Part shown: one piece after another, positions 15,673 through 16,117 of the stretch
Layout: every line of letters begins with the position of its first letter
Numbering within the stretch: position 1 is the first letter of the stretch
IMG/VR virus record: IMGVR_UViG_2617270940_000004
Coordinates: 1-19,706 of that record
Strand: one strand, 5' to 3'
Source of the DNA: a virus
Lineage: Duplodnaviria; Heunggongvirae; Uroviricota; Caudoviricetes
Length of the DNA stretch: 19,706 bases
Program-made: the position numbers and the translations under genes
The notes under the pieces: model-generated
Told to the model about the DNA's origin: nothing
What the model saw: the letters and a program-made list of their open reading frames with translations, nothing else
Databases searched by the model: none

Positions 15673-15679
15673 GCCAGAT

Positions 15680-15700
15680 AAGGCCACTATTTGTGGCCTT
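15680..15700 (+). terminator. Hairpin after the DUF1311 gene, terminator candidate
   Basis: Stem AAGGCCAC / GTGGCCTT with loop TATTT, immediately followed by family B site; downstream tract only moderately U-rich. Confidence 0.4.
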
Positions 15701-15715
15701 AAACAATTTGTTTAA
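15698..15715. promoter_or_regulatory. Family B palindromic site
   Basis: CTTAAACAATTTGTTTAA. Confidence 0.5.
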
Positions 15716-16013
15716 TTAGTGGTGTAATTATTGGAATCCCAGGCGAACTAAATCCATTGGGCAGAACAGATCTTCCACACCTTCGATAGACACGCAGTCA
15801 GAGCGGCGTAATTGTTCTTCTGATTTGCCTTCCCCACTGATTTCTCTGATTACTCCCGTTGCGCCATTCATTGCCACCATGACATGGCTGCCGATAGTGA
15901 TAGCATTACGGTTTCGATCATACGTCTTTATCGTTTTCTCCTTTCACATGGGGCAAATCAGGTTTCAAAAATTGCCGTTTTCCATGTATATGCGATTTGC
16001 AAAATATCAATTT

Positions 16014-16031
16014 CCTAAACAAATTGTTTTC
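16014..16031. promoter_or_regulatory. Family B palindromic site
   Basis: CCTAAACAAATTGTTTTC. Confidence 0.5.
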
Positions 16032-16084
16032 ACCAGCTAGTTATTACACACAGGCGAAGTTGACCGCGCTTCATATAAATATCA

Positions 16085-16100
16085 CTGTTTATACATACAG
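16085..16100. promoter_or_regulatory. LexA-box-like site (CTGT-N8-ACAG), putative SOS operator
   Basis: CTGTTTATACATACAG matches the CTGT-(AT-rich)8-ACAG pattern of enterobacterial SOS boxes; ~18 nt upstream of the 16118 start codon. Confidence 0.5.
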
Positions 16101-16117
16101 TGTATAAGAGGAAAAAA

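Follow-up and report, generated by a model that had tools for sequence, protein, structure and literature searches.

The region between positions 15673 and 16117 of the analyzed DNA (a stretch of 19,706 nucleotides, hereafter the window) consists of an already known gene, ydfZ, together with regulatory sites of familiar types, and can be accounted for without a hidden antisense regulator. The window belongs to an SSU5/pHCM2-type phage-plasmid, with 99.9% identity to the E. coli plasmid NZ_CP110979 and 87% identity to phage SSU5, and we consider it probable that the region represents a junction of mosaic type within the accessory/early part of this element, assembled from ordinary components. 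For the region, we determined the identity of the gene, the statistics of the motifs, their conservation and the positions of the individual parts (Table 1).

An earlier note had described this region as a 445-bp intergenic hub with dense regulatory content and no called gene. The regulatory content was confirmed in the form of a conserved, putative LexA-boxed promoter, two palindromes and a conserved hairpin, but the region is not gene-free: the 50-codon open reading frame that the note had reported is part of ydfZ, a gene annotated in all related records. The intergenic spaces proper are limited to 15673-15727 (55 bp, between convergent genes) and 15932-16117 (186 bp, between divergent genes). 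The value of the present analysis is thus mainly corrective, in that a supposed gene-free hub with a mystery reading frame turned out to harbor an annotated gene.

Table 1. Coordinates of the features in and around the region, as positions of the window (a dot marks features to which no strand was assigned).
Feature	Position	Strand	Details
LprI/DUF1311-family gene	14974-15672	+	Pfam PF07007, E=2.9e-5; carried in the annotation of relatives as lysozyme inhibitor LprI family protein; stop codon TAA at 15670-15672
GC-rich hairpin AAGGCCAC-TATTT-GTGGCCTT	15680-15700	.	between the convergent LprI and ydfZ genes
Family B palindrome, left copy AAACAATTTGTTT	15701-15713	.	extended module 15697-15731; kept in all SSU5-clade relatives
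ydfZ, putative selenium delivery protein family	15728-15931	-	67 codons plus stop; start codon ATA in the sub-lineage
50-codon frame of the earlier note	15728-15880	-	codons 18-67 of ydfZ, beginning at an internal ATG
Shine-Dalgarno sequence of ydfZ, GGAG	15938-15941	-	6 nt before the ATA/ATG start
FNR-like palindrome, candidate class II activator site	15997-16010	.	minus strand TTGATattttGCAA
Family B palindrome, right copy AAACAAATTGTTT	16017-16029	.	extended module 16014-16046, CCTAAACAAATTGTTTTCACCAGCTAGTTATTA; between the divergent ydfZ and 88-aa genes
Predicted -35 hexamer TTGACC	16060-16065	+	predicted -10 CACTGT at 16083-16088, 17-bp spacer; -10 inside the LexA box
LexA (SOS) box CACTGTTTATACATACAGTG	16083-16102	.	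core CTGT-N8-ACAG, CTGTTTATACATACAG, at 16085-16100
88-aa gene (phrog_2100), putative target of the LexA-boxed promoter	16118-16384	+	Shine-Dalgarno sequence AAGAGGA at 16106-16112
Inverted repeat with 39-nt arms, formed by two family B palindromes (16394, 16445)	16384-16467	.	outside the region; -30.5 kcal/mol, z -8.3

The minus-strand reading frame is ydfZ

The 50-codon minus-strand frame was recovered with exactly the translation quoted in the earlier note, and it aligned with positions 18-65 of the TIGR03318 profile. The complete 67-codon product matched this profile from end to end (positions 1-65 of 65; 102.8 bits against a cut-off of 49.7), as it did the Pfam profile PF14001 (positions 1-64 of 64; E=5.9e-28; 97.5 bits against a cut-off of 27), and it was also assigned to phrog_16303. 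TIGR03318 is a 'hypoth_equivalog' model, and selenium delivery is the function given by the family name, putative for the gene studied here. A comparison of YdfZ with PDB sequences yielded no match below E=0.5.

The true start of ydfZ was overlooked in the mechanical reading of open frames because the sub-lineage to which the window belongs has a non-ATG codon, ATA, where its relatives have ATG. An ATA start was found in five records (the window, NZ_CP110979, pLAO18, E. fergusonii pRHB41-C15_2 and CP057716) and an ATG start in six relatives (SSU5, pHCM2, Enterobacter, Citrobacter, pYLPI6a and CP057419); the NCBI pipeline calls the coding sequence even with the ATA start. The former description of the frame as lacking a clear Shine-Dalgarno sequence applies to the internal ATG but not to the real start (Table 1), whose ribosome-binding block AAAGGAGAAAAC is common to plasmid ydfZ and chromosomal ydfZ of E. 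coli K-12.

A further suggestion had been that a small antisense RNA, or a micro-protein, might be encoded on the minus strand and control the downstream operon; that a novel RNA or 50-aa product of this kind exists we now regard as extremely improbable. The strand is indeed coding and adjoins the regulatory region of the downstream gene, and with an ATA start the first canonical ATG is the very codon from which the shorter frame was read; however, what it encodes are residues 18-67 of a known family, and the variable columns among relatives were distributed as 4, 7 and 20 over codon positions 1, 2 and 3, a third-position bias. Furthermore, the frame is not antisense to anything, as ydfZ runs convergently with the LprI gene and divergently from the 88-aa gene with zero overlap with either, and therefore nothing is available for antisense pairing. 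An Rfam covariance-model search of positions 15400-16700 at E<=1 gave no match inside 15673-16117, the sole sub-threshold matches being of a generic long-hairpin, miRNA-precursor-like type at 16384-16467. Klebsiella relatives, moreover, carry the same downstream SOS promoter and gene in the absence of the frame, so that the downstream operon is independent of it. Conservation of the frame in related elements, which the earlier note had suggested as a check, was indeed observed, but it is conserved as ydfZ and not as a novel regulator.

In E. coli, initiation at ATA reaches roughly 1% or less of that at ATG. Given the change of the start codon from ATG to ATA in the sub-lineage, translation of ydfZ is therefore probably much reduced. 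This raises the question of whether ydfZ is a decaying remnant giving essentially no protein, with the functions of the region confined to a terminator hairpin and an SOS promoter, a reading that we hold to be somewhat improbable. It is favored, in addition to the start codon itself, by three extra amino-acid changes near the YdfZ N terminus in the ATA sub-lineage (T13I, R16H and T21M), by a weaker Shine-Dalgarno sequence (GGAGA instead of GGAGG) in four of its five members, and by the codon differences between the window and SSU5, nine of which are synonymous and nine non-synonymous, compared to ratios of 6:3 and 8:2 among the ATG lineages. On the other hand, the 67-codon frame has stayed open in every one of the five ATA records (approximately 97-100% identity), it continues to be annotated, and the FNR-like site upstream is nearer to the consensus in the ATA lineage than in its relatives; low-level initiation may occur at the ATA codon, or at Met18/Met21. 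In our preferred reading, ydfZ would be an inserted accessory gene (a phage "moron") equipped with a ribosome-binding site of its own and, possibly, with an activator site of the FNR type.

This latter site deviates at two positions from TTGAT-N4-ATCAA and is centered 72.5 nt upstream of the ydfZ start; three to four mismatches were found in relatives, and in SSU5 the site is essentially lost. With its center placed at -41.5, as class II spacing demands, the -10 predicted for an FNR-type promoter would be a weak CAATTT. The counterpart in K-12, TTGATaaaaAACAA, is located at -41.5 of an FNR-activated ydfZ promoter (PMC3688515); it has one mismatch and lies 88 nt from the start codon. As an FNR activator site, the plasmid palindrome is a weak candidate. 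Two other promoter candidates on the minus strand were rejected: a sigma-70 promoter, for which there was no conserved -35/-10 pair with acceptable spacing, and a module-type -10 beside the palindrome at 16017, which reads TGTAAT here and GGGAAT in relatives and is not accompanied by a -35. In the LF82/Cyrano transcriptome supplement, only the chromosomal ydfZ is listed, the plasmid copy being absent.

Like the plasmid gene, K-12 ydfZ (b1541) encodes 67 aa (55% identical along the entire length), shares the block before its start and has an FNR-like palindrome upstream; unlike this chromosomal gene, plasmid ydfZ is an inserted cassette on a phage-plasmid, with an ATA start in the sub-lineage. 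When 5,426 E. coli genomes were searched at the DNA level with the ydfZ region, only plasmid copies and no chromosomal matches were retrieved, and for this reason the K-12 locus was taken by its coordinates.

The LexA box and the 88-aa gene

The LexA-like box that had been placed at 16085 was present and conserved. It matches TACTGTATATATATACAGTA at 16 of 20 positions, with nine of the ten bases between CTG and CAG being A/T, and its counterparts in SSU5 and Klebsiella reach 18/20 (range 16-18/20 over the aligned SSU5-clade relatives and Klebsiella); no other strong LexA box is present in the 103-kb SSU5 genome. On pattern alone, the single CTGT-N8-ACAG in the 19.7-kb window is not significant (0.26 expected; at least one in 46 of 200 shuffles), and the box was judged real because of its conservation. 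Furthermore, a strong LexA box was found 8-29 nt before the start codon in 16 of 31 homologous loci of other Enterobacterales, where the protein is approximately 50-60% identical, while in other homologous loci the box lies around 550 nt upstream, behind a DinI/Tum gene.

With regard to the promoter itself, AAGTTGACCG does not vary among the SSU5-clade relatives, with TTGACCG also retained in Klebsiella. A TTGACC-16/17-TAnACT layout was also present in phage SE1 and in Serratia loci, and in SE1 the box is likewise located before the start. A consensus promoter scan of the plus strand returned three promoter-like matches compared to 2.4 expected, i.e., chance level, and did not call the TTGACC/CACTGT pair; it is conservation that points to TTGACC-17-CACTGT as the putative promoter of the 88-aa gene. 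This sigma-70 promoter would be overlapped by the LexA box, so that, with LexA bound at 16083-16102 as predicted from the sequence, host LexA would repress the 88-aa gene and DNA damage would turn it on.

Such an arrangement resembles that of N15 antC, the coliphage 186 p95/tum operon and P1 humD, in which a single, consensus-like SOS box covers the -10/start region ahead of a small phage gene. As with these LexA-repressed promoters of temperate phages, SSU5-like elements respond to DNA damage, being induced by ciprofloxacin (PMC9928086) and by mitomycin C (PMC9600943). The 88-aa product, however, is unrelated by sequence to AntC, Tum and DinI, and it had no match in phage 186.

It might be thought that the 88-aa protein is an antirepressor comparable to AntC of N15 and Tum of 186, by which SSU5/pKpn-type phage-plasmids would be induced lytically upon DNA damage; we judge this quite unlikely. 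Such a role would fit with the inducibility by either drug, with the position of the gene behind the sole strong LexA box of the SSU5 genome and with the fact that an IS element splits this box in three plasmid backbones, as might be expected if losing SOS induction favored a domesticated plasmid. Nevertheless, homologues of the protein are present in P22-like phages, which are induced by repressor cleavage, and, in P2/186-like prophages already equipped with an antirepressor, also behind DinI/Tum genes. In addition, the ciprofloxacin-inducible element Cyrano gave no tblastn match to the protein, and profile searches yielded no structural or family clue to its function. The occurrence of the gene in phages with no need for an antirepressor speaks for an accessory role.

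The recurrent insertion of IS elements into the LexA box hints that the promoter matters for the balance between the plasmid and the phage lifestyle; phage-plasmids disseminate genes for antibiotic resistance in Enterobacteriaceae. Since the phrog_2100 family is consistently LexA-boxed and is met again in P22-like and P2-like prophages, adjacent to DinI/Tum genes, it is a promising candidate for a novel phage function linked to the SOS response.

Family B palindromes, the hairpin and the probable ydfZ insertion

The palindrome AAACAAnTTGTTT, termed family B, occurred at eight sites in the window compared to 1.4 expected, a number reached in none of 200 shuffles, and the two sites previously assigned to the region at 15698 and 16014 were found at 15701-15713 and 16017-16029, respectively. 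In SSU5, 20 sites with at most one mismatch were detected, all of them in intergenic DNA, which makes up only 11.6% of the genome, and 11 sites were perfect compared to 0.01 expected. Around the palindrome, the module follows the consensus atAaTaAcaCcAA.aAGAAAACAA.TTGTTTAa, in which the central base is free to vary. As a rule, the palindrome follows a GATAAT -10 at a distance of 13 bp (about +7 to +19) and precedes a start codon by 13-36 nt, and in some of these promoters a second palindrome copy supplies the -35. A two-operator architecture is exemplified by the palindromes at 16394 and 16445, which flank the GATAAT promoter of a DUF1380 gene.

Family B has the appearance of an operator because most copies lie just after a GATAAT -10 and just before a start codon, and its most likely role, judged from these positions and from its symmetry, is that of binding a dimeric repressor, which would silence many small operons at once. 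Among the candidate HTH proteins of the element, only weak Pfam matches were obtained and no binder of the palindrome was predicted; nor did the searchable literature contain the palindrome sequence or a description of the motif, of this architecture or of SSU5/pHCM2 operators.

The operators of P1 C1 and the stoperators of L5 gp71 are dispersed, asymmetric repressor sites. Family B resembles them in being spread as approximately 20 copies over a genome of approximately 100 kb, in intergenic positions only, the majority of them coinciding with small-operon promoters or immediately downstream of these. It differs from them in being a perfect palindrome with a free central base, and in that at some promoters a long inverted repeat is formed by two copies spaced approximately 51 bp apart. 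In its presumed working, family B would thus resemble the P1 C1/L5 stoperator class while being a member of neither family.

The two copies in the region are atypical, both being outside the canonical position before a start codon. On the minus strand, the left module reads AATAAT-TACACCACTAATT-AAACAAATTGTTTAAGG. The right copy lies approximately 31 bp upstream of the -35 of the putative LexA-controlled promoter and approximately 70 bp upstream of the predicted transcript start, outside the core promoter; it is invariant in all relatives and also present in Klebsiella phage-plasmids devoid of ydfZ. In these Klebsiella elements, the hairpin is followed by a single palindrome, TTGACC, the LexA box and the 88-aa gene. 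The two palindromes that bracket ydfZ look like duplicated or recombined junctions, and would mark the route of entry of the ydfZ cassette. The upstream genes of pHCM2 are different ones, and its alignment with the window is limited to the part from 15680 onward. A 97% identical copy of the 35-bp hairpin-plus-palindrome unit was found in a pSLy3-type plasmid, and a near copy, with one mismatch in the palindrome, at SSU5 85602.

These features could also be read to mean that family B elements are not operators but boundary or recombination sequences, sites for host nucleoid proteins or a 5'-leader RNA element, for instance one bound by an FljA-like protein. Homology between relatives breaks exactly at the hairpin-plus-palindrome unit in the case of pHCM2, ydfZ sits between two copies, and the unit recurs in another phage-plasmid group ahead of a different SOS gene. 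As for a leader element, the block ACACCAAnAAGA between the -10 and the palindrome is conserved and would be transcribed, the palindrome would lie in the leader just before the Shine-Dalgarno sequence, and SSU5_121 is a member of family PF03614 (FljA); the fliC mRNA leader is the target of FljA. We nonetheless consider such readings unlikely, since perfect two-fold symmetry around a freely variable central base is characteristic of sites for dimeric DNA-binding proteins, and the fixed register to the -10 hexamer fits operator function. In RNA form, a 6-bp A/U stem with a 1-nt loop is impossible, and the 5-bp/3-nt alternative is marginal and a minor element in folding. A role as a recombination junction, moreover, is compatible with an operator role.

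Extending the operator reading, we tentatively suggest, as a rather speculative model, that family B might be the operator set of one master repressor common to the SSU5, pKpn and pSLy3 groups, which would keep around 20 small operons silent by way of promoters with one or two operators. The neighboring "SOS slot", composed of hairpin, palindrome and LexA-boxed promoter, would then be an exchangeable cassette position where DNA damage is sensed; it is occupied by the phrog_2100 protein in SSU5/pKpn elements and by a UmuD/HumD-like peptidase in pSLy3 elements. The family B motif and its defined promoter architecture provide a handle for finding the lysogeny regulator of SSU5-type elements.

The hairpin reported at 15680-15700 was likewise present, with a predicted fold of approximately -15 kcal/mol on both strands (z -2.4 to -3.1), and it was unique, as GGCCAC-N3-6-GTGGCC occurred once in the window with 0 expected. 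Its stem is invariant in SSU5, pHCM2 and the Enterobacter and Citrobacter relatives, while the Klebsiella relatives have another stem, GGCTATA/TATAGCC, at the same position. With its 8-bp GC-rich stem, its 5-nt loop and its location exactly between two convergent stop codons, the hairpin resembles intrinsic bidirectional terminators; unlike these, it has no proper U-tract on either strand. Its tails, UUAAACAAUUU (plus) and UUAUCUGGCUU (minus), fall short of the T-run required by the terminator scan, in which it was not called as a Rho-independent terminator. The hairpin probably serves as a two-way transcript-end/terminator structure, which would mark the ends of the convergent LprI (plus) and ydfZ (minus) transcripts; in Klebsiella, structure rather than sequence has been kept, as is the case for terminators.

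Position and identity of ydfZ

The 1.9 kb around region 15673-16117 was 99.9% identical to the E. coli plasmid NZ_CP110979, 80-99% identical to approximately 150 IncFIB plasmids of Escherichia, Enterobacter, Salmonella and Citrobacter, typed mostly as non-mobilizable, and 87% identical to Salmonella phage SSU5. On these sequence identities, we assigned the window to an SSU5/pHCM2-type phage-plasmid, i.e., an element that is at once a temperate phage and a plasmid.

The region had been described in an earlier note as intergenic and with no called gene. In every related record, however, the 204-nt ydfZ gene is annotated at the equivalent position on the minus strand, which leaves 15673-15727 (55 bp) and 15932-16117 (186 bp) as the real non-coding spaces. 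The 67-residue product matched the full Pfam profile PF14001 (E=5.9e-28) and NCBIfam TIGR03318 (102.8 bits; cut-off, 49.7), and shared 55% identity with YdfZ of E. coli K-12 across all 67 residues. The 50-codon minus-strand ORF previously proposed at 15728-15880 does have the translation quoted for it, and is part of the 67-codon ydfZ (TIGR03318 profile positions 18-65). It had also been considered to lack a clear Shine-Dalgarno sequence, whereas GGAG lies 6 nt upstream of the true ydfZ start, and the ribosome-binding block AAAGGAGAAAAC is common to the plasmid copy and the chromosomal K-12 gene. Since ydfZ overlaps neither neighbouring gene, it is antisense to nothing. We found no support for a hidden regulator, be it a small antisense RNA or a micro-protein. 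At codon positions 1, 2 and 3, eleven aligned copies showed 4, 7 and 20 variable columns, respectively, a pattern typical of coding DNA that is subject to purifying selection.

Features in and around region 15673-16117 (window coordinates)
Feature	Position	Strand	Sequence	Remark
LprI/DUF1311 gene	14974-15672	plus		Stop at 15672
Hairpin	15680-15700		AAGGCCAC-TATTT-GTGGCCTT	Exactly between the convergent stop codons of the LprI/DUF1311 gene and ydfZ
Family B palindrome	15701-15713		AAACAATTTGTTT	Abuts the hairpin
ydfZ	15728-15931	minus		Converges on the LprI/DUF1311 gene, diverges from the 88-aa gene
FNR-like site	15997-16010		TTGATattttGCAA	Two mismatches; centre 72.5 nt upstream of the ydfZ start
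Family B palindrome	16017-16029		AAACAAATTGTTT	Between divergent genes
LexA box	16085-16100		CTGTTTATACATACAG	
88-aa gene	16118-16384	plus		Downstream of ydfZ and divergent from it
Inverted repeat	16384-16467			Directly after the 88-aa gene

The window and four closely related records have ATA as the ydfZ start codon (15929-15931); six others (SSU5, pHCM2, Enterobacter, Citrobacter and two other E. coli plasmids) have ATG. It was because of this ATA that both the earlier note and a mechanical ORF list missed the true start; the NCBI pipeline still annotates the CDS from it. Together with three additional substitutions close to the N terminus of the protein and a weaker Shine-Dalgarno sequence in four of the five members, the ATA codon could mean that ydfZ is losing expression in this sub-lineage, which we consider somewhat doubtful because the reading frame is intact in all five ATA records.

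No convincing sigma-70 promoter was found when one was sought for ydfZ. On the chromosome, ydfZ is activated by FNR from a classical class II promoter that carries TTGATaaaaAACAA at -41.5 (PMC3688515). The FNR-like site upstream of the plasmid gene has 3-4 mismatches in relatives and is essentially lost in SSU5; FNR control of plasmid ydfZ is possible, albeit weakly supported.

The hairpin previously reported next to the LprI/DUF1311 gene was indeed present, with a folding energy of about -15 kcal/mol on either strand. Its stem is invariant and its loop variable in SSU5-clade relatives, and Klebsiella phage-plasmids carry at the same place a hairpin whose stem differs (GGCTATA/TATAGCC), which argues that the structure itself is under selection. 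As no proper U-tract was present on either strand and a terminator scan of the sequence did not call this hairpin, we only infer that it could be a two-way transcript end for the LprI/DUF1311 gene and ydfZ.

Family B palindromes across the element

The dispersed palindrome of the element, family B (AAACAAnTTGTTT), was present in eight copies in the window, where 1.4 would be expected (≤2 mismatches); seven copies are perfect and one has a single mismatch, and none of 200 shuffled windows reached eight. In the complete SSU5 genome, we found 20 sites at ≤1 mismatch, 11 of them perfect (0.01 expected). All 20 were intergenic, although intergenic sequence makes up only 11.6% of that genome (probability by chance, about 2e-19). 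Fifteen canonical sites aligned to one common module, in which a weak -35 region and then CCTTTT precede a -10 resembling GATAAT; after 13 conserved nt (aACaCCAAnAAGA) comes the palindrome, at roughly +7 to +19, and then a Shine-Dalgarno sequence, with the start codon 13-36 nt beyond the palindrome. In some family B promoters, a second palindrome, directly after a GC hairpin, provides the -35 (TTGTTT); examples are SSU5 85602, a site on a pSLy3-type plasmid and window 16394. Here, the inverted repeat following the 88-aa gene (39-nt arms, 82% complementary; -30.5 kcal/mol; z -8.3) consists of two palindromes (16394 and 16445) around the GATAAT -10 of the DUF1380 gene; Rfam returned only sub-threshold generic long-hairpin matches for it.

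Their perfect two-fold symmetry, free central base and fixed register with the -10 mark the family B sites as candidate operators of a dimeric DNA-binding repressor, which would be expected to silence many small operons. They are dispersed like the P1 C1 operators and the mycobacteriophage L5 stoperators, a likeness that is functional only; the P1 and L5 sites are both asymmetric, whereas family B is symmetric. A search for the binder among the annotated regulators of SSU5 yielded only weak HTH matches, and SSU5_121 (record L009, 46897-47343), annotated as "transcriptional repressor", belonged to the FljA family (PF03614, E=3e-81), FljA being the repressor of phase-1 flagellin. Among IMG/VR viral contigs, the extended motif was frequent, and many of the contigs carrying it measure ~100 kb, the size of such elements. 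One further palindrome, at 9806-9818 (SSU5 80773), has atypical flanks and no GATAAT module; it lies about 70 nt before an ATG at 9887 in the window, and 151 nt upstream of a gene annotated as anti-repressor Ant in SSU5.

Both family B sites reported around ydfZ were confirmed as palindromes, and neither stands canonically before a start codon; from the second, the ydfZ start is 86 nt away, and the -35 of the downstream promoter follows after 31 bp. In Klebsiella relatives, which are devoid of ydfZ, the order is hairpin, one palindrome, TTGACC, LexA box and 88-aa gene, and the homology of pHCM2 to the window starts exactly at the hairpin. In the simplest reading, ydfZ would be an accessory cassette ("moron") inserted between two diverged copies of a ~33-bp module, and such family B modules would double as junctions for the exchange of cassettes of this kind.

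Predicted LexA control of the 88-aa gene

A LexA-like box had likewise been noticed correctly. Its 20-mer CACTGTTTATACATACAGTG matches the consensus at 16/20 positions, and at 18/20 in the SSU5 and Klebsiella versions; one LexA-type pattern per 19.7 kb is not significant on its own. The box and the upstream TTGACC are kept together in every relative, Klebsiella included, and the only strong LexA box of the whole 103-kb SSU5 genome is that before the 88-aa homologue. In other Enterobacterales, whose homologues are ~50-60% identical, a strong box lies 8-29 nt before the start in 16 of 31 loci, and ~550 nt upstream in most of the remainder. On these comparative grounds, the predicted LexA box is very probably functional. 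In the P22-like phage SE1, TTGACC-16-TATACT plus a box precedes the homologue. In the window, the box and the inferred -10 (TTGACC, 17 bp, CACTGT) overlap, so that bound LexA would occlude RNA polymerase at the 88-aa promoter, and expression would be turned on by DNA damage. A response to such damage is known for SSU5-like elements: ciprofloxacin induces Cyrano 39-fold (PMC9928086), and mitomycin C induces Enterobacter elements (PMC9600943).

The 88-aa protein matched no Pfam or NCBIfam family, and PHROG 2100 has no assigned function. That it is itself the induction trigger of the element seems quite improbable, as it is present in phages without need of an antirepressor and a search of Cyrano gave no match; we therefore take its gene to be an accessory one linked to the SOS response. 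LexA-boxed operons of Fels-2/186-like and P2-like (Cartapus) prophages carry the homologue downstream of a gene with a DinI domain, Tum or DinI (records L048, 4663-6273, and L170, 1935-2761), and from this gene order the family travels with known SOS modulators. Whereas ydfZ is a known, annotated gene, and LexA boxes, hairpins and dispersed operators are each of a familiar type, the family B motif was not found in the literature searched; its one-/two-operator promoter architecture and the consistent control of the phrog_2100 family by the SOS response, as predicted here, appear undescribed there.

The pSLy3-like E. coli plasmid pMRY16-002_2 (record L007, 2000-2160) carries the unit of hairpin and palindrome, 97% identical over 35 bp, and downstream of it GAAAAT, then the LexA box TACTGTATAAATGAACAGTA and a gene for a UmuD/HumD-like peptidase of the S24 family; the predicted SOS-controlled slot thus holds a different gene in this phage-plasmid group. 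In pYLPI6a (L015, 1190-1240 and 2430-2560), ISKox3 (ISL3 family) splits the LexA box at its centre (window 16089-16096), with the 8-bp duplication TTATATAT, so that the SOS promoter and the 88-aa gene are separated. Homology breaks at the same point (window 16096) in NZ_CP101235, and CP099103 carries an ISL3 element somewhere between ydfZ and the 88-aa gene; the three backbones are 93.8-99.7% identical to the window. In CP057419, a shortened 52 kb E. coli plasmid derivative (L014, 1200-1490), the box is altered to CACTGTTTATATGTGCAGTA and the 88-aa gene is frameshifted and unannotated. Two assemblies from unrelated phyla, Capnocytophaga gingivalis (L019) and Micromonospora (L030), also contained short contigs bearing homologues with perfect enterobacterial-type LexA boxes; these contigs are most likely contaminants.
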